The notes under the pieces: model-generated
The model's database searches: none
What the model saw: only the letters and a program-made list of their open reading frames with translations
What the model was told of the DNA's origin: nothing
Translations under genes and position numbers: made by a program
Shown here: positions 19,934 through 61,017 of the stretch, one piece after another
Position numbering within the stretch: the stretch's first letter is position 1
Layout of the letters: each line of letters opens with the position of its first letter
Source of the DNA: Candidatus Omnitrophota bacterium
GTDB taxonomy: Bacteria > Omnitrophota > Gorgyraeia > JABMRG01
NCBI GenBank assembly: GCA_041650035.1
Contig: JBAZLY010000002.1
Span: forward strand, 15,436 to 79,435
Reading direction: 5' to 3'
Length of the DNA stretch: 64,000 nucleotides

Positions 19934-20902
19934 ATGAATCAAGCCAAGGAAATGCGCCTTAAGAAAACGAATATTGATAAATTCATCAAAGAAAAATGCG
20001 CCAATATATCCGCTATTGTAGGCGGCGCGGAGGCGATCAACGCACTTTCCGGCGGAGTAGATAGTGCCGCCGTCACCATGCTCGGCCATAAGGCGATAGG
20101 CAAAAAACTTAAGACATATTTTATAGACAACGGGCTGATGCGCCAGAACGAGGCGCGAATGGTAAAGGATATTTTCAAAAAACTCGGCGTTGAGGTCAAT
20201 GTTATCAACGCCAGAAATATATTTTTAAATGCCCTTCGTGGAATAGAAGACGCGGAAATGAAAAGAGAGGCCATATCGCAGACCTTTTACAAGGATGTAT
20301 TCGGCCGATTGGTAAAAAACAGCCATGCCCGCTTCCTCCTGCAAGGGACAATCCTGACAGACATTGATGAGACTGTCGCTGGGATAAAAAGACAGCATAA
20401 TGTGTTTGAGCAGCTTGGTATTGACCCTGAAAAAAGTTTCGGATACAAGATATTGGAACCTCTTGTCCGGCTTCGCAAGGACAGCGTCAGGTATCTGGCA
20501 AAATCTCTCGGTCTGCCGGAAGACATATATAACCGTCAGCCTTTTCCAGGTCCTGCGCTTGCCGCGCGGATCATTGGCGAGGTAACCGGCGAACGGATAG
20601 AACTGGCCCGGGAATCAACCGGCATTCTTGAACAAGAATGCCGCGGGATAAAGGCTTTTCAGTATATGGCCATACTTCATAACGACAAGGTCACAGGCGT
20701 AAGGGACGGGAAAAGGGCTTTCGGCGCGCAGATAGAAATAAGGTGCTGGGATAGCACGGACGCCAGAAAGGCCAAACCTACAAACCTGCCGTTTAAAATA
20801 CTGCGCAAGATAGCTGACAGGATAACATCCGAGATTGCCGGCGTTGTAAGCGTAACCTATAACATAACCACGAAACCCCCTTCAACCATAGAGGCTGTTT
20901 GA
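19934..20902 (+). CDS. divergent stand-alone GMP-synthase-like ATP pyrophosphatase (GuaA C-terminal domain / archaeal GuaAB-like)
   Basis: SGGVDS PP-loop, C-terminal KPPSTIE dimerisation motif; the XMP-binding [10 protein letters not shown] region is altered to DAEMKREAISQTF; a canonical guaA sits at 37887-39428. Confidence 0.65.
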   Translation: MNQAKEMRLKKTNIDKFIKEKCANISAIVGGAEAINALSGGVDSAAVTMLGHKAIGKKLKTYFIDNGLMRQNEARMVKDIFKKLGVEVNVINARNIFLNALRGIEDAEMKREAISQTFYKDVFGRLVKNSHARFLLQGTILTDIDETVAGIKRQHNVFEQLGIDPEKSFGYKILEPLVRLRKDSVRYLAKSLGLPEDIYNRQPFPGPALAARIIGEVTGERIELARESTGILEQECRGIKAFQYMAILHNDKVTGVRDGKRAFGAQIEIRCWDSTDARKAKPTNLPFKILRKIADRITSEIAGVVSVTYNITTKPPSTIEAV

Positions 20903-25051: not shown

Positions 25052-25450
25052 ATGAATATTGCCATATATAAAAAGAACATGATCGGGCTTACAGCATTTT
25101 TATTTTTTGGCCTTATTATTTTTTGTTTAATATCCCTGGCACGAAATAACAACAGATCCAACACGATTACCGTTAAAAGCGGCGGCACATTTACCATATC
25201 ACTTGCTTCAAACGCCACTACCGGGTTTACCTGGCAATTTGTCAGGCAAATAGACACAAACCTTTTAGGGCTTGAGGGTTCGCGGTATTTAAGCCCTGGC
25301 ACAGGCCTTGTTGGCGCGGGAGGCAGGCAGGAATGGACATTTAGGGCAAAGAAGCCGGGCAGGGCAGTAATATCTCTTGAATATATCAGGCCATGGGAAA
25401 ACGACAAGGCCTGTGCCAGGGCAAAGAATTTAACAGTTATAATTCGTTAA
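25052..25450 (+). CDS. chagasin/ICP-family (I42) cysteine-protease inhibitor
   Basis: NATTGFTW and GAGG motifs spaced as in the chagasin Ig-like fold; N-terminal TM/signal. Confidence 0.55.
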   Translation: MNIAIYKKNMIGLTAFLFFGLIIFCLISLARNNNRSNTITVKSGGTFTISLASNATTGFTWQFVRQIDTNLLGLEGSRYLSPGTGLVGAGGRQEWTFRAKKPGRAVISLEYIRPWENDKACARAKNLTVIIR

Positions 25451-25628
25451 AAGAGATGGTTGCTTAATGAGCATATGCTAATGAGAGGGTATTAAAAAAG
25501 ATAGAAACAAGCAATCGGACCAAATCTAATCATTCATAAACACGATTTAAGTCCATCAGAAAACCTGTCAGACAAGACTCAACTTCAATCGAGAACCCAT
25601 AAAAAACCCTTTTTCTGCCTCAATCTCT

Positions 25629-25656
25629 ATGTCCTATAATATATCTTATGTTAACT
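25629..25656. other. dif: dif-like XerC/XerD chromosome dimer resolution site
   Basis: ATGTCCTATAATATATCTTATGTTAACT; XerD arm TTATGTTAA identical to E. coli dif; about 23/28 identities to the Bacillus-type dif as I recall it; sits where the plus- and minus-strand gene blocks converge. Confidence 0.5.
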
Positions 25657-25896
25657 ATGCAATGTGAAAAACCCAGCCATAACCCATTATATTACGTAAG
25701 TTATAAAGTTATACATCTCGGTTGTGGATAATACCTAAATAATACCCCTAATGGCGATTAAAACATATCAAGTACTATCAGATATTACCTGCCTTTTATC
25801 ATTGTGGACACGCTAAGGTGATCGTATATTTAAAATTTTAAAATTTTTTTTTGAGCTTGAAACCGGAAAAAATAGCTTATTTTTTGTGGATATTTT

Positions 25897-27204
25897 TTAG
25901 CCGAGGTTTAGAAGCGGGATATTGAGGCGCTGTCTTTTGGTCTCCCCTTTTTGCAGGTTTTTTTGGCGCCAGGAAAGGCTGTTTCTTGGGTGGTTTTTTA
26001 AGCCCTTCCGCAAGGGGTTTTTTGATGATGCCAGATGGATGGTATGCTTGCCGTATTTTTTGGCAATTTCATCAATCATCCTTGAGACCTTTTCTACCTT
26101 TTCTATTCTTATCGCATCATCAAAAAGCGTCCTTTGATACTGCAAGTTTACGGTGATATCTGATAAGACAATGCCCGATGCCCTGTACAGCAGGCCATCT
26201 TTAAAGATATCGTCAAAAAGCCCTGCTAAAATATCTGCGAATTCCATCGTTGATGATGAATGACAGCTCAAGGTTGCCATGAGGCCTGTTGCCTTAAAAT
26301 CCTGCGTTTTTAGATATGCCAGAAGACGTCTCGCGAAAAGGCCGTGACGCCTTAATTTTATGCATGCAGACTCAAGATTTCTTGTAATCTGCGCCTTGAC
26401 AAACAATCTGTTTTTTGATGCCGGCGAAAAGGTCTTTGTCTTGCTTATTGATAAATACTTCTCTTTTCTTAATGTGTTGATTCGATACACATAATGCCCT
26501 CTAAGTTCAAGCCACAATTCCCTGCCTATTTTGCCTAAAATACTCTCCGCAAAATCTAAGGGTTTATTGATATAATCAAAGACATTATTAAGCCCATAAC
26601 GGCGTAAAAGCTCAACCGTATTATGCCCGAAACCGCAGACCTCCTCAAAAGAAGTCTGCTTTAAAAAGCAATGGATCTCATGGCCCGGCAATGCCTTTAT
26701 GCCGGACGGTTTATTACAGCCCGAGCAGAGTTTTGCAAGTGTCTTTGACAGGCTTAGGCCTATTGAGACAGTGATATCCAGCTCTTTTTCGATTCTTTTC
26801 TTTATTAGAAGCGCGATATTCTCATAGCCTGCGTGATAAAGCCTCCTCATACCGGTAATGTCGCAAAATGCCTCATCAATAGAATATTCCTCAACATCGG
26901 GGCTGAATTGCCTTAATATGGAAAACATCCTTTCAGAATAAATACTGTAAAGCTCATAATCACTTGGTATTATAATTGCGTCGGGGATAATCTTCTTAAC
27001 CTCATGCAGGCGTATACCCCTTCCAATGCCTCTGGCCTTTGCCTCATAGCTTGCGCAGGATACTATCCCCCTCTCTTTCCCCGTTATCACGGATTTTCCT
27101 TTTAAAATAGGGCTTCTGGCCTGCTCGCATGAAACGAAAAAGGCATCGCAGTCTACATGCAATATAGCCTTTGGATAGTTTTTAAGGGTTATGAATTGGG
27201 ACAC
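25897..27204 (-). CDS. Y-family DNA polymerase (UmuC/DinB-like translesion polymerase)
   Basis: LHVDCDAFFVSCE and YSIDEAF catalytic motifs; 435 aa; immediately downstream of lexA. Confidence 0.8.
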   Translation of the reverse strand: MSQFITLKNYPKAILHVDCDAFFVSCEQARSPILKGKSVITGKERGIVSCASYEAKARGIGRGIRLHEVKKIIPDAIIIPSDYELYSIYSERMFSILRQFSPDVEEYSIDEAFCDITGMRRLYHAGYENIALLIKKRIEKELDITVSIGLSLSKTLAKLCSGCNKPSGIKALPGHEIHCFLKQTSFEEVCGFGHNTVELLRRYGLNNVFDYINKPLDFAESILGKIGRELWLELRGHYVYRINTLRKEKYLSISKTKTFSPASKNRLFVKAQITRNLESACIKLRRHGLFARRLLAYLKTQDFKATGLMATLSCHSSSTMEFADILAGLFDDIFKDGLLYRASGIVLSDITVNLQYQRTLFDDAIRIEKVEKVSRMIDEIAKKYGKHTIHLASSKNPLRKGLKNHPRNSLSWRQKNLQKGETKRQRLNIPLLNLG

Positions 27205-27208
27205 GTCT

Positions 27209-27790
27209 TTATTTGTATTTTCTTATATTCGCGATAACCACACCGGCTATAATAAGCTCATGCTTAGGTATTATAGTGGGATACTTCTGATTTGCCGCCT
27301 GCAGATAGACCTTTTTGGCCTTTTGCTTAAAATATTTTAATGTCCACTCATTATCAACCCGGGCTATAACAATATCACCGTCTTTTGGGTCAAGGCCTTT
27401 CTGGATAAGGACAAGGTCCCCCTGATGTATGCCAGCCTCTATCATGGAATCGCCCCGGACATTTACAAGGAATGTCGCGTTGGGATTTGACACGAGATAC
27501 TCATCAATGCTTACAACATCCTGAAGCTCTTCTTCAGCGGGACTTGGAAAACCTGCCTGTATTGAGCCCAGTATAGGTACTGCCCTCATTGCCTTTTTAG
27601 GGATAAGCCGGCCTCTGTCATCTTTTTCCAAAAGGCCCGCTTTTATAAGAGCCGATACTCTTTTAAACGCGGCATTCTTTGAGCTTAAACTAAAGATAGA
27701 AAGCATTTCAGAATATGACGGCATTCTTTTTTTCTTAAAGTAAAAACCCTTTATCTTATCTAAGTATAATAAAAGCTTTTCTTTTTTCAT
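27209..27790 (-). CDS. lexA: LexA repressor (S24 peptidase)
   Basis: N-terminal winged HTH, Ala-Gly cleavage site (IQAGFP), Ser (GDSM) and Lys (VIARVDNEWTLKYF) catalytic dyad. Confidence 0.8.
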   Translation of the reverse strand: MKKEKLLLYLDKIKGFYFKKKRMPSYSEMLSIFSLSSKNAAFKRVSALIKAGLLEKDDRGRLIPKKAMRAVPILGSIQAGFPSPAEEELQDVVSIDEYLVSNPNATFLVNVRGDSMIEAGIHQGDLVLIQKGLDPKDGDIVIARVDNEWTLKYFKQKAKKVYLQAANQKYPTIIPKHELIIAGVVIANIRKYK

Positions 27791-27799
27791 GACAGGGAT

Positions 27800-27828
27800 A
27801 TTATAGTGAACGATTGTTCACGTGTCAA
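27800..27828 (-). promoter_or_regulatory. lexA promoter TTGACA-17-TATAAT with an SOS box (GTGAAC-N4-GTTCAC, Cheo-box type) filling the spacer
   Basis: Minus strand reads TTGACAcgtgaacaatcgttcacTATAAT, with the ATG 9 nt downstream; palindrome at 27806-27821. Confidence 0.6.
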
Positions 27829-27875: not shown

Positions 27876-27903
27876 TTGACATTTCTGCCGCTTTTGCTAT
27901 AAT
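27876..27903 (+). promoter_or_regulatory. divergent sigma70 promoter TTGACA-16-TATAAT for dus (leaderless mRNA implied)
   Basis: TTGACA 27876-27881, TATAAT 27898-27903, ATG at 27910. Confidence 0.45.
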
Positions 27904-27909
27904 CATGCC

Positions 27910-28971
27910 ATGCTAAAAATCGGAGACTATACCCTGGAATCAAAACTCATCCTGGCCCCTCTTTCAGGCTGTTCAGACCTGCCATTTAGACTCATATGCA
28001 GGGAGCATGGCTGTAAGTTTGCCTTTTACGAGATGCTTGACGCCCATGGTATAACCTATGGACATAGGCGCACATTGTCAATGCTTGAAACAGACAAAAG
28101 AGACTCCCCCATTGGTGTGCAAATCTTAGGTAATGACCCCGAGAGGGTGCTGGAAGCTGTTCAGATTATATTAAACAATTCTAATTCAAAAATAATTGAT
28201 CTTAATTGTGCCTGCCCGGCTTTAAAAGTCCTTAAGAAAAAATGCGGCGCTTATCTTCTTAAAGAACCGGAACAGGCAGGAAGGATCATTAAAAAACTCT
28301 CCTCCTGCCTCTCTACTCCTATTACAATAAAACTAAGGGCAGGCTGGGGCAGGGAACACCAGAATGAAGGACTATTACTTGCTAAAATAGCCCAGGATAA
28401 TGGCGCAAAAGCAGTGTTTTTCCATGGAAGGAGCTGTTCGCAGGGGTATTCCGGCAAGGCATCATATGAACCCATAAAACAGGCCAAAGAAGCCCTTAAA
28501 ATCCCTGTTATTGGAAGCGGTGATGTATTATCCCCCGAGCTTGCGAAGGATATGCTGGATAGAACTGGCTGTGACGGTGTTTTAATAGCAAGAGGCGCTT
28601 TTGGCGCGCCCTGGATATTTGCGCAGACAGAAAAATATTTAAAAGACGGCCTGCCTTCTTCTCTTGCTTCTTATGAAATAATAGTAAACACTGCCAAACG
28701 CCACATTCAAATCTTTAAAGACTGGAAGGATAGAAAACTTCTTTGCCATAACGAGGAGGCCTCAAATAGGCAACCAAAACAACCAACCTCCCCCGCCCCT
28801 GAAAAATACTATATCGGTCATCTGCGAAAAATAGCTATGTGGTATTCAAAAGGCCTGCCCTACTCTAAAAGAGCCCGCGAGACCATATCATTTGCCAATA
28901 GCTTTGATGAAATCATAGGTATTCTTGACAGGCTTAAGAATGATTATGATATCAAGTGGCTGAAAAGGTAA
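27910..28971 (+). CDS. dus: tRNA-dihydrouridine synthase (DusB-like)
   Basis: LAPLSGCSDLPFR, catalytic Cys region NCACP, TIM-barrel FMN motifs; C-terminal extension with Pro-rich insert. Confidence 0.8.
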   Translation: MLKIGDYTLESKLILAPLSGCSDLPFRLICREHGCKFAFYEMLDAHGITYGHRRTLSMLETDKRDSPIGVQILGNDPERVLEAVQIILNNSNSKIIDLNCACPALKVLKKKCGAYLLKEPEQAGRIIKKLSSCLSTPITIKLRAGWGREHQNEGLLLAKIAQDNGAKAVFFHGRSCSQGYSGKASYEPIKQAKEALKIPVIGSGDVLSPELAKDMLDRTGCDGVLIARGAFGAPWIFAQTEKYLKDGLPSSLASYEIIVNTAKRHIQIFKDWKDRKLLCHNEEASNRQPKQPTSPAPEKYYIGHLRKIAMWYSKGLPYSKRARETISFANSFDEIIGILDRLKNDYDIKWLKR

Positions 28972-29123
28972 AATACGCAGTCAAGGTTAATATAGGGTAC
29001 AGTGCGAAGCTCAATCTTGGGACAGTGGCCCGATTGAATTTCAAAGCGTCTGTATTAAGGTATATTAAGGTATTAAGGCATCAAACTGCTAACGGCAATC
29101 GGGCTGCCTCTTTACATCCTTGC

Positions 29124-30071
29124 CTAAACAGAGGCTTCCACTCTTTTCATGACCAGGATGCCCCGGCGCGACATCTCATTCGCGTTTTTAGAGTTCACGT
29201 CGGCAAGCATATGCCGCAGGAGAAATGCCTTGATGCCTAAACCTTCTTTGGCGGACATCTGCGTTAAACCCGCCATACCCTCAACTATATCATCCTCTCT
29301 ATCGAAATTATTGAATATGTAAAGTGTTAACAACATGCTGATGCCGCCTGGCGAATCCCTGCCGAATTCAACAATGTTATTAAGTTCGAATTCATTGCGC
29401 GTGTTTACAAACATCCTGGCAAAGCGGTCGAGCCTTTCCCCGTCGCATATTATACTGCATAGGACATTAAACATAAATTCTTCTTTTGAATCACTTGCGA
29501 ATAGATTAAAAGACAGATTAAGCTGTCGGGCTACGTATCTGCCGTATCCAGCGTTGTCAAATAATATGCCATCGTCCTTCCGGACAGAGGCAAGCTTACG
29601 TTTGAGGCTGTTTCTTTCAAGCCCATTCAGCTTTTTATAAGGACTATACATGAACGAATACCCTGCGCCATTCAAAGACTTAGAGAGTATGCCCAGTTGT
29701 TCCAATAATCTAAGCGATGTCCTGATATCTTTTATTGTGTATTGCGGCTCTCGCTCGCCGGTATACCAGAATTGCCGGATATCCCGAAGCGTTATGCCGT
29801 CTTTTCTACCATAAAAACGCTCTTCCAATATCCCTAATACCTTTAATAACGGTCTCCGTATCGTAGCGGCATCTGAAGAAGCGGATTCTGCAGGCCAGGT
29901 TGTTACAGCGGTCAAACCCCTGACATCATGCGATAACCCGGCAGATACCGGCCTTAACAATCTGTCATGACCCCAGACACAGGCAGGGTTAATAACGCGC
30001 CGCGCATCCTCTTGCGCGAGGATGGGGCGAAAACATGTTAATAATATATAAAAATATATTATGATCATCAA
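29124..30071 (-). CDS. hypothetical secreted protein (315 aa)
   Basis: N-terminal signal-like segment; no family recognised. Confidence 0.5.
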   Translation of the reverse strand: MMIIIYFYILLTCFRPILAQEDARRVINPACVWGHDRLLRPVSAGLSHDVRGLTAVTTWPAESASSDAATIRRPLLKVLGILEERFYGRKDGITLRDIRQFWYTGEREPQYTIKDIRTSLRLLEQLGILSKSLNGAGYSFMYSPYKKLNGLERNSLKRKLASVRKDDGILFDNAGYGRYVARQLNLSFNLFASDSKEEFMFNVLCSIICDGERLDRFARMFVNTRNEFELNNIVEFGRDSPGGISMLLTLYIFNNFDREDDIVEGMAGLTQMSAKEGLGIKAFLLRHMLADVNSKNANEMSRRGILVMKRVEASV

Positions 30072-34211: not shown

Positions 34212-35594
34212 CTATCTGCCTTTCTCTAATATATTTTTTGTAAATTTTTTCGGTATTTGTGTCGGGTAATCCCGGTTGAAACAGGCCTTGCAAAAATTAT
34301 CACCCGCAAGGGGCATAGCCTTTAGCATACCCTCGAGGCTAAGGTAGTTCAGGCTGTCAAGGCCTATGAAATCCCTTATCTTATCAACCGTGCGGTTAGA
34401 GGCTATAAGCTCTCTCCTGGTCGGAAAATCTATCCCATAATAGCAAGGTGATATCACGGGTGGACAGCTTATCCGCATATGGACCTCTTTGGCCCCTGCC
34501 TGCCGCAGGCTTTTAACGCGGCTGCGGCTTGTGGTCCCGCGCACTATTGAATCTTCAACTATCACGACCCGTTTCCCCTTAAGCAATTCACTGATCGGAT
34601 TAAGCTTTATCCGTACCCTGAAATCCCTAATCTGTTGTACCGGCTGAATAAAAGTCCTGCCGACATAATGGTTCCTTATCATACCCATCTCAAACGGCAG
34701 ACCTGATTCTACTGCAAAACCCAAAGCCGCGTAATTGCCTGAATCGGGAAACGGCATGACCATATCGGCATCAACCGGCGCCTCTTTCGCCAACTCCGCC
34801 CCAAGACGCTTTCTTGTAAGATACACATTCTTGGTAAAAATATCGCTGTCAGGCCTGGCAAAATATATAAACTCAAAGATACAGTGGGCCCGGGATGCGC
34901 AATCATTGAATACCACGCTTGAAGGCTGGCGTCCATCAATAAAAACAATCTCGCCGGGATTAATATCGCGTATATATTTAGCGCCTATGATATCAAAGGC
35001 GCATGTCTCGCTTGACAGCACATAAGAATTACCAATACTGCCCAGACTTAACGGCCTCATACCTAAGCGGTCGCGCGCGCCTATCAACATCCCATCAACC
35101 AACATTATAACAGAAAAAGCCCCTTCAAACCTGGAAAAAACCTCGGGCAGGCTTTCTTTTAAGGGCTTGCGGCGCAGACGGGCAAGCATATGGATTATGA
35201 GTTCCGAATCCATGGTTGTCCCAAAAACAGAACCACCCTGCTCCATTTCCTCGCGCAGAGAATACGCGTTGGTAAAATTCCCATTATGCGCTACCGCGAT
35301 ATGGCCCTTGCCGTGTCTTGCCAAAAACGGCTGAATATTACTAGCGCTGCTGGAACCCGTAGTGGAATACCGCACATGGCCTAATGCCAAGGTGCCTTTT
35401 AATTTTTGTATGGAATCCCCGTCAAAGACATCACTGACAAGCCCCATACCCTGGCGCTGTATTATCCTGTTTTTACTATAAGATAGTATGCCGGCGCTTT
35501 CTTCGCCTCTGTGCTGCAAGGCATACAACCCCAGATATGTCAATAATGATGCGTCTTTGTTTCCGTATACACCAAATACACCACACATAGTCAT
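34212..35594 (-). CDS. purF: amidophosphoribosyltransferase
   Basis: N-terminal MCGV nucleophile, Ntn-GATase plus PRTase (VEDSIVRGTT) domains. Confidence 0.9.
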   Translation of the reverse strand: MTMCGVFGVYGNKDASLLTYLGLYALQHRGEESAGILSYSKNRIIQRQGMGLVSDVFDGDSIQKLKGTLALGHVRYSTTGSSSASNIQPFLARHGKGHIAVAHNGNFTNAYSLREEMEQGGSVFGTTMDSELIIHMLARLRRKPLKESLPEVFSRFEGAFSVIMLVDGMLIGARDRLGMRPLSLGSIGNSYVLSSETCAFDIIGAKYIRDINPGEIVFIDGRQPSSVVFNDCASRAHCIFEFIYFARPDSDIFTKNVYLTRKRLGAELAKEAPVDADMVMPFPDSGNYAALGFAVESGLPFEMGMIRNHYVGRTFIQPVQQIRDFRVRIKLNPISELLKGKRVVIVEDSIVRGTTSRSRVKSLRQAGAKEVHMRISCPPVISPCYYGIDFPTRRELIASNRTVDKIRDFIGLDSLNYLSLEGMLKAMPLAGDNFCKACFNRDYPTQIPKKFTKNILEKGR

Positions 35595-37886: not shown

Positions 37887-39428
37887 CTATTCCCACTCTA
37901 TGGTGCTCGGAGGCTTTGAAGATATGTCAAAAACCACCCGGTTTATACCACTGACCTCGTTCATAATACGGTTTGATACCCTTTGCAGAACATCCCCGGG
38001 CAGCCTTGCCCAATCCGCGGTCATAGCATCATTGCTTGTAACGGCGCGCACACATATGACATTTCCGTATGTCCGCTTATCGCCCATAACACCCACCGTA
38101 TTAACAGGCAAAAAAACACAAAACGCCTGCCACAACTTAGAGTAGAGCCCGCAACCTTTTATCTCATCTATTAATATCGCGTCAGCGTCCCTTAATATAT
38201 TGAGCTTCGCCCTTGTGATATCACCTATTATCCTGACGGCAAGTCCGGGGCCCGGGAATGGGTGCCTATAGACCAATTCATCCGGCATCCCGAGCTCTTT
38301 CCCCAGAAGCCTGACCTCGTCCTTAAAAAGCTCCCGGAGCGGCTCTATAAGGCTGAATCTTATCTTGACCGGCAGGCCGCCTACATTGTGATGGGTCTTA
38401 ATAACGGCAGAAGGTCCACCGGCGATTGAACTCGATTCAATAACATCGGGATACAGGGTCCCTTGCGCGAGAAACTTGATATCGCCAAAAGACCTTGCCT
38501 GTTTCTCGAAAACATCAATAAAGACCTTTCCGATGATCTTGCGTTTTTTTTCAGGCTCCATAACACCTTTAAGGGCCTTTAAAAACACCTTTGAAGAATC
38601 AACGCATTTCAGATCTATCCGGTAATTACGCTTGAACCTCTTTTCAACAATAGCCGCTTCATCTTTACGCAACAGGCCGTTATCGATAAATACGGCCTTA
38701 AGATTGGGGCCTATGGCCTTATGCAAAAGCAACGCCAAGACAGAGGAATCAACGCCTCCGCTTAAACCGCATAATACTTTTTCGCCACGGGTTTTTTCGC
38801 GTATGATTTTTACGGCCTCTTCCGCGAATGAACCCATAGACCAACTCCTGCGGCAGGCTGATATATCAAAAATAAAATTTTTTAAAATCTTCGCGCCGCC
38901 GATTGTATGAACTACTTCCGGATGAAACTGCACGGCATAAAACCTTCTTCCGGTATCCTGCATAACCGAGATACCTGCATTGCCGGTCTTTGCTGATACG
39001 CTAAACCCCGCGGGAAGCCGGGTAATTTTATCGCCATGGCTCATCCAGACAATCCCGCAATGCCCCAGACCGCTCAAAAGGCCGTTGTTATCAACAATTC
39101 GCAACTGCGCGCTGCCATATTCCCCGGCAGGCGCTTTGGCAACAGAGCCACCAAGCAGTTTAGCCATCAGCTGCGCGCCGTAACATATACCCAATACGGG
39201 CATGCCGAGAGAAAAAATATTTTTGTCAGGGCGGGGACTCTTTTTTGATATAACACTGGCCGGTCCGCCGGATAGAATTACGCCATTTGGATTTAAGGAC
39301 AGAATCTTTTCGGCAGGTGTATTATAAGGCAATATTTCCGAATACACATGATTTTCCCTTATTCGACGGGCTATCAGATGGGTATATTGGGAACCAAAAT
39401 CAAGAATCGCTATCCAGTCTTTTGCCAT
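37887..39428 (-). CDS. guaA: GMP synthase (glutamine-hydrolysing)
   Basis: GATase Cys (GICYG), SGGVDSS PP-loop, canonical PEKKRKIIG and C-terminal KPPSTIEWE. Confidence 0.9.
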
Positions 39429-53770: not shown

Positions 53771-54328
53771 TTATTTATATTTAGTCTTTTTTCCGGCGAG
53801 ATCAAATATAAAGGTGCCAGCGGTCTCTTCAGGCAGCCAAAATGTAAGAGATGTGTACGTACTTTCAACGGCCTTGACCAGAAACCCTCCCGTGCAGGAT
53901 TTTTCCTCAATGGAATCTCTCAAATAATCGCTTGGGATGAGCCCCAGGGCCGTCACAATTATTCCCGATAATATCACTCCCCTGCCAAAACCAATCACCG
54001 CGCCGCCTAATCTTTCAAGCTGGGGTATAAGCTGCACATTCATTATCTTTAGTAATAACGCGAACCCATATTTGAATATCAGCCTGATAAGCTGGATGAT
54101 TACAATAAAGCATAAAAACTGCGAAAGCCAGACAGGCAATTCAAAATTCACGACAAGGACATTCGCCGTGCGGGCATACCATATTACCGCGCAAACAAGG
54201 CTTACCAATATGCCCAAAAAATTAAACAACTCCGCGGTGAGCCCGAGTTTGGCCCCGATATATACAGCCCTCAAGCTTATGATTAGCACTATTACATCAA
54301 GCCAATTAATATTTTTTAAGATTTCCAT
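53771..54328 (-). CDS. cvpA: CvpA-family membrane protein
   Basis: NWLDVIVLIISL N-terminus, 4 TM helices; about 185 aa. Confidence 0.75.
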   Translation of the reverse strand: MEILKNINWLDVIVLIISLRAVYIGAKLGLTAELFNFLGILVSLVCAVIWYARTANVLVVNFELPVWLSQFLCFIVIIQLIRLIFKYGFALLLKIMNVQLIPQLERLGGAVIGFGRGVILSGIIVTALGLIPSDYLRDSIEEKSCTGGFLVKAVESTYTSLTFWLPEETAGTFIFDLAGKKTKYK

Positions 54329-54437
54329 ATAGTTTTATATCAAATAATAGTCAATATATATCATACAAAAAGCCAAAAGTCAAGGGCATTAGATTTTTGG
54401 GGACTCCTGCCTTTGACAAAACCGCAATTAAGCCGTC

Positions 54438-54459
54438 AAAAAATGCTGAAGTCACAGCA
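54438..54459 (-). terminator. candidate intrinsic terminator after the GT39 gene
   Basis: Minus-strand UGCUG-loop-CAGCA hairpin followed by UUUUUU. Confidence 0.3.
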
Positions 54460-54497
54460 AATAATTTTCAATTTATATAACCAACACTCTATTTAGG

Positions 54498-56009
54498 TTA
54501 CTCTTTTATGAACTTGCTCTTATCCGCATATAATGAATATTTAGCAAAAACCTTAATTTTCGAAATTAATTTATTAACTTGAGCAGGAATTTGATCAACA
54601 TCACTATTCATAACCACATAAAAATCTATTTTTTCATCATTCGCATATTTTAATAGTTCATTCTCATCAAATCCATTAAGCATTTTATTTGCTATCCCGC
54701 CACTATAAAAATCTGCCGAATAAGGCACCTGACAAAGATAAATTAATTCAGAGCCATCCTCCTTAGCTTTATCAAACGTCTTGCATATTATTTTATGAGA
54801 TTTCTTTAGCCCTTCATTAGGCGCAATAGTGAATAAGGCAACAGTAAAAAGAAAAGGCATAAAACACACAAAGAAAATAAAGACCTTAAAACTTGTAAAC
54901 CATTTGACTTTAGCAGCAACATTTAAAGCCTGATTATATTCAATCAGATAGACTATCAACACAGCAAATGCTGGTAAACCAGGCAACACATAGGTTATCA
55001 GAATATTCCCTGCTAAAGTAAAAAATAATAAGGGTGACAGAAACCACAACAAAAAATACGAAACCCAACTATCCTTGAATAGGCAATCGATAATTTTCTT
55101 TTTTCTAACAGTATACTGAATATTAAAAATGAAAATACCGAGCCATGGCAAGGCTGCCAAAATAAAAAACAACCAAATCATACCTCGAGGAAAATCATGG
55201 ACACTGCCATACAAATCCCCGCTCCAGGCATGGTAAATAAAGCGCATGAAATGCTCACCTATAAAAAAATATCTTAAGAAACCGGGAGTTTTGATTTCAG
55301 CAGCAATATACCATGGTAAGGATATTGCCAGCATTAAAATAGTTCCCCCAATCCAGGGAAAACTGCGTATCGCCTTAGCCCACTTTTTTTGAAATGATAC
55401 CCATACAATAATAGGAAATAAAGTTAAAACAACACCAACCGGCCCCTTAGATAGCAAGCTTAAACCTATTCCTAAAAAAAATGCATATCCCCAAAGAAGC
55501 TTATGACGACTAACCTTTTCTTCTATCGCTAACAAAAATGCACTCATTGATAAGGTAATTGAAAACGATAACGCAGGATCAGTCATAACTCCACCTGACA
55601 TAATATAAAATAACCCCACCGTTAATAATACTAAGCATGACTTTAATGCAAACACATTATTTCTAAAATTCTTTGCTGATAAAAACAAAAAGATCATATT
55701 GCCTATTGCAAATAACAAAGAAGGCAATCTAGCTGCGGTCTCCGAAACACCGAATAATTTAAAGCTCAATGCCGTTGCCCATATAGAAAGCGGCGGTTTA
55801 GCCCAAAAGGGAATTCCCGGGTCAGTTTGAGGTGTAATCCAATTATTCGTTGCAAGCATCTCACGAGCAATTTCAGCATAACGAGATTCCGTTTTATCCA
55901 TTAAAGGGCATGCTCCTAGTGCAATAAAACGTAAGCAAATAATAGCAAATAACAAAAACAAAAAAAATTTCACTTCTGAAAAATTATGGCTTGCTGTCAG
56001 TTTATTCAT
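54498..56009 (-). CDS. GT-C membrane glycosyltransferase, family 39/83 (ArnT/PMT-like)
   Basis: About 12 TM segments, N-terminal RYAEIAREML...WAKPPL motif, soluble C-terminal domain. Confidence 0.7.
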   Translation of the reverse strand: MNKLTASHNFSEVKFFLFLLFAIICLRFIALGACPLMDKTESRYAEIAREMLATNNWITPQTDPGIPFWAKPPLSIWATALSFKLFGVSETAARLPSLLFAIGNMIFLFLSAKNFRNNVFALKSCLVLLTVGLFYIMSGGVMTDPALSFSITLSMSAFLLAIEEKVSRHKLLWGYAFFLGIGLSLLSKGPVGVVLTLFPIIVWVSFQKKWAKAIRSFPWIGGTILMLAISLPWYIAAEIKTPGFLRYFFIGEHFMRFIYHAWSGDLYGSVHDFPRGMIWLFFILAALPWLGIFIFNIQYTVRKKKIIDCLFKDSWVSYFLLWFLSPLLFFTLAGNILITYVLPGLPAFAVLIVYLIEYNQALNVAAKVKWFTSFKVFIFFVCFMPFLFTVALFTIAPNEGLKKSHKIICKTFDKAKEDGSELIYLCQVPYSADFYSGGIANKMLNGFDENELLKYANDEKIDFYVVMNSDVDQIPAQVNKLISKIKVFAKYSLYADKSKFIKE

Positions 56010-56116
56010 TTTTATTGAAGTTTGTCGGTATTTTTTAGTTTGAAATATCGCTTTTTATGCCTTTTAGATCTTTTGCCTTGACCCGGGGTAAAATACCTGA
56101 TTCGCTTTTGCCGGCA

Positions 56117-58222
56117 TTAGGAATTGGAGGCGTCAAGAAACAACCCGGCATACTCCTGATTCCCATAGGCGGCGATAAAGGCATCGACTACCAAAGGATC
56201 GAAACAGCTTCCCTTTTTTTCTTTAAGCCTTTCGAGAGCCTGCCGCCTGTCGATAGGTTCTCCTTCCAGATGCGTTGAGGTCATAGCGTCAAAGGCATTG
56301 CAAACAGCTATAACGCGCGATGCCATAGGTATGGCGTTACCCTTCAATCCGTCAGGGTAACCCGTGCCGTCAAAATTCTCATGATGATACCGGATAACAT
56401 CAAAACTGTCTCCGATCTCCTTGATAGGCTTTAATATATTCTGGCCTATAATAACATGCTCCTTGAAATGTTCCTTTTCCTCTTCGGTTAAAACAGAATG
56501 TTTTTTTAGTATCCTGTCCGGTATGCCTATTTTGCCTACATCATGCAAAAGCGAGGCCACATGAAGCGTCTCATAAAAAGAATCGCTAAAATTGACGTAA
56601 GGAAGCAGCCTTTCGAGTTCTTTAGCCGTTGCCATCGCGTAATCGCTCAATCTCTGGGTATGGGCATAAGTATATCCGTCCTTTGAATCAATGGCAAAAC
56701 TGAATGCCGATGCCGCGTCTAAAAACAATGCGTGCTCTTCCTTATACAACGCGTCTAATTTGCGTATCCTCTCTTTGAGTTCTTCATACATCCGTGCGTT
56801 CTCAAAAGCAATGGCGGCATTATTGGCCAAGGTGGATAAAAGCGAAAAATCATCGCTCGTGTAGATATTTCCAGATAGTTTCGCTCCAAGCACTATGAAA
56901 CCGATAATCTGGCCCCTTAAAAAACTCGGGACACATAAGGCAGCGCCTGATCTTTCCATAGCCATCCTTATGTGGTCGAGGGTCTTTTTAAGGACGGGCC
57001 TCTGCGGAAAGATCTTGTCACCCTGTATCCAGCTTAAAACACTCTCATAACTTATAGGCTCTTTTTTTTCAACGAGCCATTTAACCAGCGGATTATCCGC
57101 GTCTATCTTATCCAGGGTATCCTGCCCTTTAAAACCCCTGCGCACCTCTCGGATATAGGCATTTGCCGTTTTATTGTAAATATATGCTGAACTTCCGGTG
57201 ATCCTTATCTCTTTTGATATAAATCTTACCATCAGGTTCAGAAGTTTTCTTGTATCGGTTATTAGTGTCATACCTTTGGCAACTTTTTTTAAAACCAGCA
57301 TATAATCATATCCGCGTTGATACAAGAACGCGTCGGTAAATCTGGCAAGAAATTCCTCCAGTGTCCTTATAAAAACGGTAAGGATAAAAACCGCGGCTAT
57401 GGGCAGTATCCATCTGTTCATATTAAAAGTAACGGATAGGTGCCGCTGAAGGATAAAGACAAACGCCACGAAGCTTCCAACGCTTGCCCCGTAAAGTGTT
57501 GAGAATATCAGCGTCCGCCTCTTTATGACCTCAACACCCATAAGACGTACCACGTATGTGGCAATAGCTACAAAAAGATTAGCGAGGGCAACAAAATACA
57601 GGGCCATCGGACCTATAACAGGAACGGAAATACCGTAAATTGTAAAAAACATCAAGCTGCCGCCGCTTAGCCCGCATACCCCCGCTATCGTAACATATTT
57701 CATCTGGCGTTTGCCTATATCGCTAAGCTTGCCAAACGATTTATGCATAAGATAATGCGCGTAAATAGGCAAAGCGGCAAAAAACAGCATAAAAACCGGG
57801 TGAAGTATGCCGGGGTCGTTAAAATTCAGGCCAAGTTTAAATGACACGCTCTTAACAATCAACGGCGTGAAACTTAAACATGAAAAAATCACCGCAATCG
57901 TATAACCCGCGGACAAGGCCTTTCTGCTTTTGCCAGTCAAGCCTAAAAGTTTTACGATAAAATGGAAATAAAATATAGGAACAAAAGAGACCCCGATATA
58001 AGAGACCCTGGCAAAAAATAACGCATAATCCTTATCGTTGAACAGGCAGAATAATAAAGTACATAACGAAAACTCCGCGATAGAAAGCATCAGCAGATAA
58101 TAACTTCTTACGATCTCACCTCTCCTACCGCGAAAATAAATAAGGCTTCCGAGCAAAAGAGTGATAACAAGCGTAAAGACGGAACCTGCCAAATAATGTA
58201 ATCTGTAATAACACATACTCAA
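56117..58222 (-). CDS. 7TM sensor - GAF - HD-GYP c-di-GMP phosphodiesterase (paralog 1)
   Basis: Multi-pass N-terminal domain, central GAF, C-terminal HD-GYP (HDVGKIG...HHENFDGTGYPDGL). Confidence 0.75.
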   Translation of the reverse strand: MSMCYYRLHYLAGSVFTLVITLLLGSLIYFRGRRGEIVRSYYLLMLSIAEFSLCTLLFCLFNDKDYALFFARVSYIGVSFVPIFYFHFIVKLLGLTGKSRKALSAGYTIAVIFSCLSFTPLIVKSVSFKLGLNFNDPGILHPVFMLFFAALPIYAHYLMHKSFGKLSDIGKRQMKYVTIAGVCGLSGGSLMFFTIYGISVPVIGPMALYFVALANLFVAIATYVVRLMGVEVIKRRTLIFSTLYGASVGSFVAFVFILQRHLSVTFNMNRWILPIAAVFILTVFIRTLEEFLARFTDAFLYQRGYDYMLVLKKVAKGMTLITDTRKLLNLMVRFISKEIRITGSSAYIYNKTANAYIREVRRGFKGQDTLDKIDADNPLVKWLVEKKEPISYESVLSWIQGDKIFPQRPVLKKTLDHIRMAMERSGAALCVPSFLRGQIIGFIVLGAKLSGNIYTSDDFSLLSTLANNAAIAFENARMYEELKERIRKLDALYKEEHALFLDAASAFSFAIDSKDGYTYAHTQRLSDYAMATAKELERLLPYVNFSDSFYETLHVASLLHDVGKIGIPDRILKKHSVLTEEEKEHFKEHVIIGQNILKPIKEIGDSFDVIRYHHENFDGTGYPDGLKGNAIPMASRVIAVCNAFDAMTSTHLEGEPIDRRQALERLKEKKGSCFDPLVVDAFIAAYGNQEYAGLFLDASNS

Positions 58223-58285
58223 CCTATATTTGAAGTAAACCGGCAGGACTATGGCCTGTTTAAATATCCATAATGAACCGGCTCG

Positions 58286-60355
58286 CTATTCTATCTTGCC
58301 CTGCTCAAAGGCCTTTAAAAAGGCCGCGACTACATAAGGGTCGAATTGCGCAGACGCGTTTTTTTGGATCTCATCCCTTGCCGTTAAAGGAGGAAGTCCT
58401 TTTCTATACGGTCTATCGGATGTCATAGCGTCATAGGTATCGGCTACGGAGATGATCCTCGCCATAAGCGGTATTTCATCCGATTTGAGACCTTCAGGAT
58501 AACCCTTACCGTCATATCTTTCATGATGATATCTGATGCCACCGACAAGATCCTTTAATCCCGCGATATGCGAGACGATCTCCGCACCCAGCACGGGGTG
58601 TTTCTCTATCTCTTTTCTTTCTTCAGGCGTAAGCTGCGCGGGTTTATGCAATATATCGTCAGGCACGCCTATCTTTCCTATGTCATGCAAGACCCCCGTT
58701 ATCTGCAGTCTGTGCCTGAAAAAGGCATCTTTATCTATTTCATCCATGGCACCCATAAAATCAAGTATCACCAAGCTGATATTAGTGACCCTCTGCGAAT
58801 GGCCGTGCGTATAGGGGTCTCTGGCGTCTATGGCGGCGGCGAATGCCACCGACGAATGCATGAATAGCCTGTGCTCTCTTTTGTAAAGATTTTCAAGCTC
58901 AAACGCCTTTCTGTCTATCTCAAAATATAACTGCGAATTTTTAAGCGCGATAGCCGCCTCGTTGGATAGAGCGCTGAACAGATCCATATCATCCTGCGAG
59001 AAAAAATCACCGTTTTTCTTTTCCCCGAGTATAAGCACGCCTAAAAGATCATCCCTGAAAAAACAGGGCACGCTCAATGCCGCGTGAAGGGTAGACATAG
59101 TGTCTTTTATCTGGAACAGGTCAGACTTAAGCGACCCGGGTATTCGTCTTTGGTTAAAATTATTCATCCACTTCAAGACATCATCCAAAGCGAGCGGTCT
59201 TTTTTTTTCGCTAAGCCACATTATCAGGGCATTTTCAGACCTCAAACTTATCAGGCCATCGCCGATGTCACCCCTTGAGGCCTTCAGAACATACGAAGAG
59301 GATCTGCTATCAAACAGGAATACAGCGGCATTTGCGAGCTTAAGCTTCGCGGATATTATGTGCACAATAAGGTTTAGCAGTTTTTTTGGGTCACGAATCT
59401 TCGACATGCCTTCGGCCGCGTCCTGCAAGGTCTTCTGGTATTCGTACTTCCTGCGAAAAAGGAATCTGCCGGCAACATTATATATAGTTTTTTCAACCGG
59501 ACGGATTACGAGGGTTACAAGCAGAAGTGAAAACGCGGGGACAATCCAACGATTATCGCCTATATAAGGCTTAAGGAATTGTTCACCGGCTATAATCGCG
59601 AGCATAAAAAGTCCTATCGAAAAACCGAATATACCTGCGAATATCGCCGTCTCACGTATAATAATCTCAATATCCATAAGACGATGACGTATTATAGCAT
59701 AGGCAATAATCATAAGCGAAATTGAAATAAAAACAAAACCAGGCGGATATATCTCAAAACCATAATTAACAGCGAAATCAATTCCTGCCAAAAAATATAG
59801 CCCAAAAGCAACTAACACATACTTGAGTTGTTTTTTTAAAAAAAGATTAGTTTCATTATAAAATTTCCCAATTGTTTTATATGAACCTCTACCAGCTAAG
59901 AAAAATAAAAAAATAATATAAAAAATATGCAGAACTCCTGCTTTCGGGTAATACCCCCATATATTTGAATAATGCCCATTAATAAAAATACGTGTCATCC
60001 ATAGAAAATAAATAAAAAACAAGCCAATAACATAAAATATTCTTATCGCTACGTATTCTTTTTTTGCTCCAATAAAAGATATAGCAAAATTAAAATATAC
60101 GATCGGTAAAAATATAATAAACGAATACCCAATTTTAATAACCAAATCAACAGGCAATAAATCAGGAAAACCAAACAATATAAACCATGAAAATTGCCAT
60201 CCAAACGTCGTTAAACTTAATAAAAAAAATAACCGATTCGTATGAAAACGAGAATTTTTTATTATCACAAAAATTCCCATTAGAAGAAACAAAATTGAGC
60301 TTAACAAAGGTGGGTATGAATATAAATTTAAATGCATATTATATATATTGGACAC
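58286..60355 (-). CDS. 7TM sensor - GAF - HD-GYP c-di-GMP phosphodiesterase (paralog 2)
   Basis: Same architecture as paralog 1; HDIGKIG...HHERYDGKGYPEGL; start overlaps thioesterase stop by 17 nt. Confidence 0.75.
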   Translation of the reverse strand: MSNIYNMHLNLYSYPPLLSSILFLLMGIFVIIKNSRFHTNRLFFLLSLTTFGWQFSWFILFGFPDLLPVDLVIKIGYSFIIFLPIVYFNFAISFIGAKKEYVAIRIFYVIGLFFIYFLWMTRIFINGHYSNIWGYYPKAGVLHIFYIIFLFFLAGRGSYKTIGKFYNETNLFLKKQLKYVLVAFGLYFLAGIDFAVNYGFEIYPPGFVFISISLMIIAYAIIRHRLMDIEIIIRETAIFAGIFGFSIGLFMLAIIAGEQFLKPYIGDNRWIVPAFSLLLVTLVIRPVEKTIYNVAGRFLFRRKYEYQKTLQDAAEGMSKIRDPKKLLNLIVHIISAKLKLANAAVFLFDSRSSSYVLKASRGDIGDGLISLRSENALIMWLSEKKRPLALDDVLKWMNNFNQRRIPGSLKSDLFQIKDTMSTLHAALSVPCFFRDDLLGVLILGEKKNGDFFSQDDMDLFSALSNEAAIALKNSQLYFEIDRKAFELENLYKREHRLFMHSSVAFAAAIDARDPYTHGHSQRVTNISLVILDFMGAMDEIDKDAFFRHRLQITGVLHDIGKIGVPDDILHKPAQLTPEERKEIEKHPVLGAEIVSHIAGLKDLVGGIRYHHERYDGKGYPEGLKSDEIPLMARIISVADTYDAMTSDRPYRKGLPPLTARDEIQKNASAQFDPYVVAAFLKAFEQGKIE

Positions 60356-60749
60356 CTCTTATAGCGATCTCGGGAGGAATGGGTATTACTGAACCATTCT
60401 GTCCAACAAAACCAATTTTTTGCCGACCTTCACCGTGTATTTCGTTGGTAACTTTATTAACAAATGTAAAAATAAGTTCAAATGTGGTAATTTTTGGATT
60501 TTTAACCTCTACCTTTATTTCAATATCATCAAACAACAAAGCCTCTTTCTTAAATTTCATACTAGCCTCTATCGTAACCATTTTGATCTTTTTATTTATA
60601 AAAAACATCGGGTCCGGCGTAACCTGCCTAAAAAATTCCTCTCTAGCAACACCTTGCCAATAAAAATAATTTGCGAAATAAACATTGCCAAATAAATTGG
60701 TATCTCGTAAATATACACGGATATTGATTGAGAAATTTTTTTTTGCCAT
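60339..60749 (-). CDS. hotdog-fold acyl-CoA/acyl-ACP thioesterase (YbgC/4HBT-like)
   Basis: 136 aa; N-terminal R.DTNLFGNVYFANY as in 4HBT thioesterases. Confidence 0.6.
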   Translation of the reverse strand: MAKKNFSINIRVYLRDTNLFGNVYFANYFYWQGVAREEFFRQVTPDPMFFINKKIKMVTIEASMKFKKEALLFDDIEIKVEVKNPKITTFELIFTFVNKVTNEIHGEGRQKIGFVGQNGSVIPIPPEIAIRGVQYI

Positions 60750-60752
60750 AGC

Positions 60753-60998
60753 CTATTCCCTTCCAAGGTTATTTTTTATGTAACAAATTAAATCATTCAC
60801 GGTCTTAATACCTTGTGTGTCTTCGGTTGAAATTTCAAAATTAAACTTCTCTTTCACAATAAAGGATAATTCCGCGAAACCAAAAGAATCAATAGCTAAG
60901 TCTTCAATTAATAGCAAATCGTTTTTTATTTTCGCGCAATCAATATCAAGCAACTCTGAAAACATACCTTTAACAGTTTCCTCTATATTAATATTCAC
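60753..60998 (-). CDS. acyl carrier protein (dedicated ACP)
   Basis: DLAIDSFGFAEL phosphopantetheine-attachment motif; GTG start after AGGAGG; the longer ORF-track version would overlap the KAS 3-prime end. Confidence 0.6.
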   Translation of the reverse strand: MNINIEETVKGMFSELLDIDCAKIKNDLLLIEDLAIDSFGFAELSFIVKEKFNFEISTEDTQGIKTVNDLICYIKNNLGRE

Positions 60999-61017
60999 AA
61001 GTCCTCCTAATTTCCTT

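Follow-up and report, generated by a model that had tools for sequence, protein, structure and literature searches.

The 28-bp sequence ATGTCCTATAATATATCTTATGTTAACT, located at positions 25629-25656 of a 64-kb stretch of DNA from an Omnitrophota bacterium (this whole stretch is hereafter called the window), is very probably the chromosomal dif site of the XerCD type, lying in the terminus region at the convergence of the gene arms. Established for the site are its sequence and layout, its conservation throughout the phylum and its uniqueness within the region, along with its chromosomal setting and its place where the gene orientations converge. As such it is an expected housekeeping feature of a well-known kind. 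The window comprises positions 50,993-114,992 of a 156.5-kb metagenomic contig and is also contained in the NCBI metagenome-assembled genome (MAG) GCA_041653815.1. A preliminary description made from the letters alone had reported a dif-like 28-mer at these coordinates; the sequence is present there on the plus strand, and its identity as dif is supported by agreement with the phylum consensus at 26/28 positions, by recurrence throughout the phylum and by the convergence of genes on it.

Sequence and architecture of the probable dif site

The site shows an 11-6-11 layout in which two partly palindromic arms surround a 6-bp centre (Table 1). Judged by the criterion described in PMC3025954, the inner parts of the arms (positions 7-12 against 17-22) form four Watson-Crick pairs and one G-T pair, equal to the dif of Bacillus subtilis. 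The 28-mer was compared with the experimentally verified dif sites of Escherichia coli (GGTGCGCATAATGTATATTATGTTAAAT) and B. subtilis (ACTTCCTAGAATATATATTATGTAAACT) (Kono et al. 2011, PMC3025954). It is identical to the E. coli site at 19/28 positions and to the B. subtilis site at 23/28, with 10/11 identities in the XerD arm in each case. The top match to the B. subtilis reference in the window is the site at 25629-25656; against the E. coli sequence it is surpassed by one position by a site on the minus strand at 55593 (20/28). The Firmicutes profile has been found to be the best predictor of dif in many non-proteobacterial phyla (Kono et al. 2011, PMC3025954).

The agreement with the Omnitrophota consensus ACTTCCTATAATATATCTTATGTTAACT is to be read against a chance ceiling of 21-22/28, obtained with 200 random sequences of 64 kb that were composed like the window or like the island. 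The nine nucleotides TTATGTTAA of the XerD arm were found once only in the window. A better dif match elsewhere, named in the preliminary description as a possible objection, does not exist in the sequence at hand, the next best match to the Omnitrophota consensus in the window reaching 21/28. This runner-up, CCTTTCTCTAATATATTTTTTGTAAATT, lies at 34219-34246 inside the 3' end of purF, 8.6 kb from dif and in the same orientation. Since 21/28 sits at the upper edge of chance, the purF look-alike is judged to be fortuitous.

Conservation of the site across genomes

The degenerate pattern CCTAKAATATANNTTATGTTAAC was scanned against one genome per species and matched at least 120 contigs, with a single match in each of them. 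Among the matches listed, 42 are labelled Omnitrophota, and it was from these genomes that the Omnitrophota dif consensus was derived; most of the others are Bacilli and Izemoplasmatales/Mollicutes, with few from elsewhere. Positions that the pattern leaves unspecified are still conserved in the matches listed, namely a 5'-terminal ACTT and a 3'-terminal T. In the same set, the centre hexamer is TATATC in 34 and TATATG in 6 of the 42 Omnitrophota, and TATATA in 66 of the 78 non-Omnitrophota (Bacilli/Mollicutes type); the window carries TATATC, the Omnitrophota-type centre. Measured in fixed register, information content is ∼2 bits within the 28-mer and drops to background (∼0) right at both edges. 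The 28-mer of the window, its ATGT left-arm variant included, recurs without any change in other species whose flanking DNA is unrelated (L006, L095, L135-L146). Because the siblings L001-L004 (99.8-100% identity) are of the same strain, they carry no information on conservation. No second site of at least 20/28 was found in 340 kb of Omnitrophota loci.

These results bear directly on chance, that is, on a resemblance to dif without function that arose in AT-rich intergenic DNA. The island and dif are both AT-rich and the look-alike in purF reached 21/28 by chance. In contrast, a match of 26/28 exceeds the random maximum of 21-22, and both the block-like conservation and the occurrence of the identical 28-mer in other species among unrelated flanks speak against chance. 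Chance resemblance is effectively refuted, with a likelihood close to nil.

The same dif-type 28-mer is also held by eight IMG/VR contigs classed as viral (L127-L134), three of which (L127, L128 and L132) have the Omnitrophota-type TATATC centre; L127 and L132 have flanks in common. The eight contigs may represent either elements that exploit Xer or pieces of chromosome wrongly classed as viral.

A practical output of the comparison is an Omnitrophota dif consensus (ACTTCCTATAATATAT[C/G]TTATGTTAACT). Annotation of dif marks the probable terminus region and helps to orient and scaffold MAGs of this uncultured phylum.

Gene orientation and chromosomal context

The site lies in an island bounded by two stop codons, those of a chagasin-family gene on the plus strand and a Y-family polymerase gene on the minus strand. 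The size of 446 bp and the non-coding character given in the preliminary description are correct, with a measured GC content of 31.8% in place of ∼33%. A search of the island against Rfam returned no family at E values up to 1, and no intrinsic terminators or promoters above shuffle expectation were detected in it. All called genes and substantial open reading frames (ORFs) left of 25450 are on the plus strand as had been described, but their number in the window is ∼35 rather than more than 40. The minus orientation described for the right of 29124 was borne out; over the whole right side of the site, the exceptions to it are dus (27910-28971) and a 94-aa ORF at 28956-29240. A further 10 kb leftward on the contig is likewise all plus, and a further 10 kb rightward, with the sequence taken from a sibling contig, is co-oriented too, so that the all-plus stretch on the left measures ∼35 kb and the almost entirely minus stretch on the right ∼48 kb. 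Since the extensions keep the orientation pattern, ∼84 kb holds one convergent strand switch, which is at the 28-mer.

The same arrangement was found in the Omnitrophota loci, where coding DNA around dif is 90% on the plus strand to the left and 92% on the minus strand to the right (42 loci among the matches listed). In 30/37 Omnitrophota loci the genes on either side of dif converge, and the median intergenic gap is 307 bp. These orientation statistics indicate that the 28-mer marks the convergence of gene orientation phylum-wide and that the window conforms to this pattern.

The gene content is of the housekeeping type (BipA, PurL/PurF, GuaA, CarB, RlmN, GreA and FabF, with L21/L27/Obg just outside the window). 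No match to plasmid and phage collections was obtained by megablast with 16 kb around the site, and no integrase, phage or plasmid genes were found in the window or extensions. A plasmid or phage origin of the contig, raised in the preliminary description, is therefore not indicated.

It was considered whether the 28-mer, instead of being the host dif, serves a mobile element for attachment or resolution, either in the manner of the integrative mobile elements exploiting Xer (IMEX) or as a plasmid site resembling cer/psi. In agreement with such an origin, the lexA-Pol IV cassette beside dif (described below) is missing in some relatives, where dus follows dif directly, and eight IMG/VR viral contigs have the same motif. 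However, no second dif-like site, even a degenerate one, flanks the cassette or occurs in the 340 kb of Omnitrophota loci, the window and extensions are free of integrase, phage and plasmid genes and of plasmid or phage DNA matches, and the 156-kb contig is one of housekeeping genes. Moreover, dif is kept at the gene convergence across the phylum whether the cassette is present or not. The IMEX form was ruled out by the missing second dif-like site, the cassette consisting of lexA and Pol IV only, and a mobile-element origin as a whole is very improbable.

GC skew and motif polarity

The raw cumulative GC skew of the window peaks at ∼25-26 kb and changes sign at ∼25.5 kb. A sign change near 25.6 kb had been proposed in the preliminary description as a check on the terminus; the raw flip was indeed observed, but it arises from codon positions 1 and 2 and does not serve as independent evidence. 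At first codon positions the coding-strand GC skew is alike left (+0.31) and right (+0.34) of the site, so that reversal of the coding strand flips the raw skew. At third codon positions, the coding-strand GC skew (GC3) is -0.065 on the left versus +0.082 on the right (gene-level p ∼2e-6), and the corresponding AT skew is +0.072 versus -0.127 (gene-level p ∼2e-9). The AT skew at fourfold-degenerate sites is -0.02 on the left versus -0.27 on the right. The third-position difference between the arms is absent or nearly so within ±4 kb of dif and increases with distance; it could result from an offset of the point where replication forks meet or from regional differences in codon usage. Third-position asymmetries that are comparable or larger, and of random sign, are present at other 8-kb dif loci of Omnitrophota and Bacilli (standard deviation of the difference in GC3 ∼0.3), and the replication-associated GC3 skew in the phylum is weak, amounting to ∼0.045 between co-oriented and anti-oriented genes. 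Because such asymmetries are common at dif loci, third positions neither confirm nor refute a terminus here. GC skew was dropped as independent proof of the terminus after the decomposition by codon position, and the third-position asymmetry was dropped as an argument against the terminus in view of the equal or larger values at other dif loci. As a caution on method, where ∼90% of genes are co-oriented a raw GC-skew flip carries no information that the strand switch does not already give, and decomposition by codon position is needed.

The skews also relate to the possibility that the dif is real and genes converge on it, with the fork-meeting point, as marked by the mutational skew switch, at least 25-35 kb to the left. 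This arrangement would explain third-position GC and AT skews that have the same sign over 64 kb with no trend to flip at the left end. It is also compatible with a published estimate in which the distance between dif and the shift point of the GC skew reaches ∼1.4% of genome length at 1 sigma, and with the argument that termination occurs near dif and not at dif (Kono et al. 2011, PMC3025954). Nonetheless, given the similar or larger asymmetries of random sign at the other Omnitrophota and Bacilli loci and the weak replication skew of the phylum, the asymmetry in the window may reflect regional heterogeneity of codon usage, and it nearly disappears within ±4 kb of the site. An offset terminus is rather unlikely.

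Polarity was evaluated with motifs of the FtsK-orienting polar sequence (KOPS) and SpoIIIE recognition sequence (SRS) types, comprising GGGNAGGG, GAGAAGGG, GAAGAAG and de novo octamers. Copies of the KOPS motif GGGNAGGG point toward dif at 7:1 in the window; for the Omnitrophota loci the ratio is 36:7. The KOPS-like polarity that the preliminary description had suggested as a check is thus present in the direction of dif, but it is not stronger than that of generic purine-rich octamers. The polarity is uninformative because it is inseparable from the generic purine-rich bias of coding strands.

For the preferred reading, that of a XerCD-type dif in the terminus region, the points that weigh against it are as follows. 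The raw skew flip restates the gene orientation and is not independent evidence; the third-position skew keeps one sign on the plus strand (C>G, A>T) over 64 kb with no flip; and the KOPS-type polarity is no stronger than the purine bias of coding strands. Left-arm positions 2-3 of the window dif depart from the phylum consensus, and in L148, the closest relative, the outer left arm is very different (TTTGGATATAA). Finally, xerC, xerD and ftsK were not found in the 84 kb examined.

The dif of L148 (JGI 3300077319) is TTTGGATATAATATATCTTATGTTAACT. It has dif positions 7-28 and the right spacer in common with the window, and an outer XerC arm and left flank wholly unlike those of the window. The window left arm and adjacent left flank are closer to those of the more distant L135-type relatives than to those of L148. 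Since L148 differs on the left and agrees on the right, the pattern is that of a mosaic across the crossover point.

Link to Xer recombinases and proposed mechanism

Inside 14 non-Omnitrophota dif loci lie genes for full-length XerD/XerC homologues, which are 36-42% identical to the XerD of E. coli. The presence of Xer homologues inside these loci ties the site class independently to Xer recombinases. The loci concerned (L011, L039, L044, L046, L048, L053, L058, L066, L068, L069, L092, L100, L120 and L123) are Bacilli/Mollicutes-type MAGs, some of them labelled Muribaculaceae, with the homologue within a few kb of dif. No xer gene was found near dif (within 8-10 kb) in any Omnitrophota locus. 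The orthology groups K04763 (XerD) and K03733 (XerC) are listed for Omnitrophota genomes (PMC10066038 supplement).

By homology with the XerCD/FtsK system of E. coli and the CodV/RipX system of B. subtilis, we infer which protein would bind which arm, a dependence on FtsK and recombination activity of the site. In this model, a XerC-type tyrosine recombinase would bind the less conserved left arm ATGTCCTATAA and a XerD-type recombinase the highly conserved right arm TTATGTTAACT. Strands would be exchanged where each arm meets the 6-bp centre TATATC. In a chromosome dimer, which has two dif copies, an FtsK-type translocase travelling to dif would switch on recombination between these copies as the septum closes, and this recombination would resolve the dimer to monomers.

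Features of the probable dif region and conserved DNA on the XerD side

Table 1. Positions and strands of the features in and around the island that holds the dif site.
Feature	Position in window	Strand	Remarks
Chagasin-family (I42) peptidase inhibitor, left flank	25052-25450	+	Last gene of plus arm; PF09394, E 2e-25
Non-coding AT-rich island, 446 bp, 31.8% GC	25451-25896	.	Between convergent genes; homologous throughout to related Omnitrophota dif region
dif site, 28 bp, ATGTCCTATAATATATCTTATGTTAACT (very probable)	25629-25656	+	Matches verified dif sites and Omnitrophota consensus
Putative XerC arm ATGTCCTATAA	25629-25639	+	Left 11 bp of dif
Central hexamer TATATC	25640-25645	+	6 bp between dif arms
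Putative XerD arm TTATGTTAACT	25646-25656	+	Right 11 bp of dif
GTTA block	25700-25703	+	∼+72 from dif start; in register in 23/48 Omnitrophota loci
DnaA-box-like TGTGGATAA	25723-25731	+	+94 from dif start; reverse complement of canonical DnaA box TTATCCACA
AAGTACTATCA block	25770-25780	+	Conserved in window's own lineage only
Second box TGTGGATAT	25885-25893	+	8/9 to DnaA-box complement; conserved in relatives
Y-family DNA polymerase (Pol IV/UmuC-like)	25897-27204	-	Convergent on dif; Pfam IMS and IMS_C
LexA-type S24 repressor	27209-27790	-	First gene of lexA-Pol IV operon; TIGR00498 lexA, 128.8 bits (cutoff 110.95)
SOS (Cheo-type) box GAACGATTGTTC, GAAC-N4-GTTC	27808-27819	.	18 nt upstream of lexA start codon
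Promoter-like TTGACA-16-TGcTATAAT	27876-27903	+	Near-consensus extended -10; ends 6 nt before dus ATG (27910)
dus (tRNA dihydrouridine synthase)	27910-28971	+	Only sizeable gene pointing away from dif

Conserved motifs accompany dif on its XerD side. The element TGTGGA(A/T)AA, which is the reverse complement of DnaA-box-like TT(A/T)TCCACA and is kept in the closest relatives of the window, occurs in ungapped register at +90 to +108 in 22/48 Omnitrophota loci (25 with a relaxed pattern), and was also picked up by a de novo scan of 8-mers. Examples of loci with the box at +95/96 are L026, L050, L062, L076, L081, L095 and L106, and in one clade TTACTTAAACTTACC is present at ∼+118. In relatives without the lexA-Pol IV cassette, the box aligned to TGTGGATAT stands right before the dus ATG. 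Since the TGTGGA(A/T)AA box was found in 8 loci that have no polymerase cassette, it goes with dif. No conserved RNA fold was detected in the extension (RNAalifold energy 0 for both strands, 25 loci), and no description of a coupling between a DnaA-box-like motif and dif was found in the literature.

Several Mollicutes/Izemoplasmatales loci contain TGTG(G/A)ATAA at a fixed position of +66; this motif was not outstanding in the de novo scan of the non-Omnitrophota loci. An association of dif with the box across phyla is held to be weak because the scan does not single out the motif.

The boxes raise the question of whether the island is an origin-like or DnaA-regulatory region in which the resemblance to dif is secondary. 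The TGTGGATAA box (25723-25731) is a perfect complement of the DnaA box, it is conserved in relatives together with TGTGGATAT (25885-25893), and an A/T run is located at 25830-25856. Yet the genes are convergent, where those at an origin would be divergent, neither dnaA nor dnaN is nearby, and there are two boxes only. Further, DnaA-box 9-mers are not enriched over the window as a whole (19 observed, 15.7 expected), and the dominant conserved element of the island is the dif 28-mer. An origin-like identity is extremely unlikely.

The occurrence of phased XerD-side motifs and of flanks with DUF134 genes and SOS cassettes (see below) suggests, as a speculative proposal that is more doubtful than not by a wide measure, that dif in much of the Omnitrophota is the core of a larger conserved terminus module. 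The XerD-side motifs could serve as binding sites for an accessory factor, for which DnaA, the DUF134 protein and some other terminus protein are candidates; such a factor might control Xer recombination, halt replication forks or FtsK, or link termination with the control of initiation. If functional, the box, the DUF134 neighbour and the SOS polymerase cassettes would together hint at an accessory layer on termination or dimer resolution in this phylum without cultured isolates.

Genes neighbouring the probable dif site

The polymerase that converges on dif scored ∼190 bits against the NCBIfam Pol IV models, which is under their cutoffs; its NCBI name is DNA polymerase IV (Candidatus Omnitrophota bacterium). 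The S24 gene lies directly upstream of the polymerase gene in 6/6 orthologous contexts. The consensus of the Cheo-type SOS box is GAAC-N4-GTTC, and GAACGATTGTTC is the putative autoregulatory operator of lexA. The position of the promoter-like sequence adjoining the dus ATG suggests that the dus mRNA is leaderless or nearly so. The orientation of dus away from dif is retained in relatives.

The lexA-Pol IV cassette is located between dif and dus, exactly at the junction of the spacer with dus. In six related contigs (L135, L138, L139, L141, L142 and L144; Dus 75% identical), dif is followed by 294 nt and then dus with no cassette, and the window island aligns over its whole length to this 294-nt spacer. 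The cassette and both boxes (+94 and +246) are present in L148, the closest relative, whose polymerase is 79% identical. Among five more distant orthologous lexA-Pol IV operons, one is 4.6 kb from dif and four are without dif within 5 kb. The cassette may have been inserted at this junction or lost from it in relatives, and its proximity to dif may reflect ancestral synteny or repeated recruitment. A 13-nt direct repeat bounding the cassette had been entertained and was disproved by the raw sequence, the repeat being an artefact of a column-compressed alignment.

A Y-family polymerase gene converging on the XerD side was found in 17 Omnitrophota loci, the window and 16 others, among them L018, L019, L034, L045, L051, L056, L070, L081, L086, L093, L103, L112 and L121. 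No dif-adjacent Y-family polymerase was found on the XerC side (0/30 loci). The polymerases of the 16 other loci are ∼368 aa in length and just ∼30% identical to that of the window, and they are often preceded by an ORF of ∼100 aa with a weak match to DUF6504 and by an S24 peptidase gene.

On the left side, a gene for a DUF134 protein (UPF0251, with a helix-turn-helix like that of sigma-70 region 4) ends 20-110 nt from dif in 30/51 Omnitrophota loci. DUF134 is also the left neighbour in L136, L138, L141-L144, L146 and L148. The gene is absent from the 64-kb window. In L148, genes for DUF134, a 107-aa protein, PDDEXK_1 and FMN_bind are situated between dif and the chagasin-like gene. The absence of this left-side gene set from the window suggests a deletion of ∼2 kb in the lineage of the window.

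Elsewhere in the window, a stand-alone PP-loop and GMP_synt_C protein (322 aa) is encoded in the left arm at 19934-20902, besides the full-length GuaA (513 aa) encoded in the right arm at 37887-39428. Two low-GC patches (∼34-35% GC) lie in the region 54000-61000, one with a PMT-family glycosyltransferase gene (54498-56009) and the second around tandem paralogous 7TM-GAF-HD-GYP genes (56117-58222 and 58286-60355). In the same region the sibling contig L126 has genes for HMG-CoA reductase and acyl carrier protein and a shorter HD-GYP gene, a difference which indicates that the region is strain-variable.

Comparison with known systems

The closest of the verified sites is that of B. subtilis, served by CodV/RipX, which shares with the window site the length of 28 bp, the 11-6-11 architecture, a TATAT-type centre and a XerD-type arm identical at 10/11 positions. 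The Omnitrophota consensus ACTTCCTATAATATATCTTATGTTAACT agrees with the B. subtilis dif at 25/28 positions. The two sites differ in the centre, which is an asymmetric TATATC in the window and a palindromic TATATA in B. subtilis, and at position 24 in the right arm, which is T in the window (TTATGTTAACT) and A in B. subtilis (TTATGTAAACT). Left-arm positions 2-3 are also unlike those of the B. subtilis dif, and the host phylum is another one, the Omnitrophota of the Planctomycetes-Verrucomicrobia-Chlamydiae (PVC) group. The dif of E. coli, which functions with XerC, XerD and FtsK/KOPS, has the same architecture and is identical over the nine nucleotides TTATGTTAA of the XerD arm, whereas the XerC arm agrees at merely 5/11 positions and the centre at 4/6. 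Both the E. coli and the window site are in the terminus region where the chromosome arms converge.

The XerS/difSL system of streptococci and lactococci is likewise a dimer-resolution site of the terminus, with xerS linked to difSL. The linkage of xer and dif in the 14 Bacilli/Mollicutes loci recalls that of xerS and difSL, in contrast to the Omnitrophota, in which no such linkage was found within 8-10 kb. The difSL site is 31 bp in length and differs in sequence from the window dif (PMC3025954).

Cassettes beside dif-type sites are also known from the IMEX elements, such as CTX-phi and the gonococcal genetic island, and from the pdif modules of Acinetobacter. Whereas a dif-like site lies at each end of IMEX elements and pdif modules, the lexA-Pol IV cassette of the window has one dif only and is devoid of integration or replication functions.

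The plasmid sites cer and psi resemble the Omnitrophota loci in combining a Xer core with conserved flanking DNA at a fixed distance. The accessory DNA of cer/psi (∼150-180 bp) binds accessory proteins on the XerC side in a plasmid context. The Omnitrophota extension differs from it in being on the XerD side and chromosomal.

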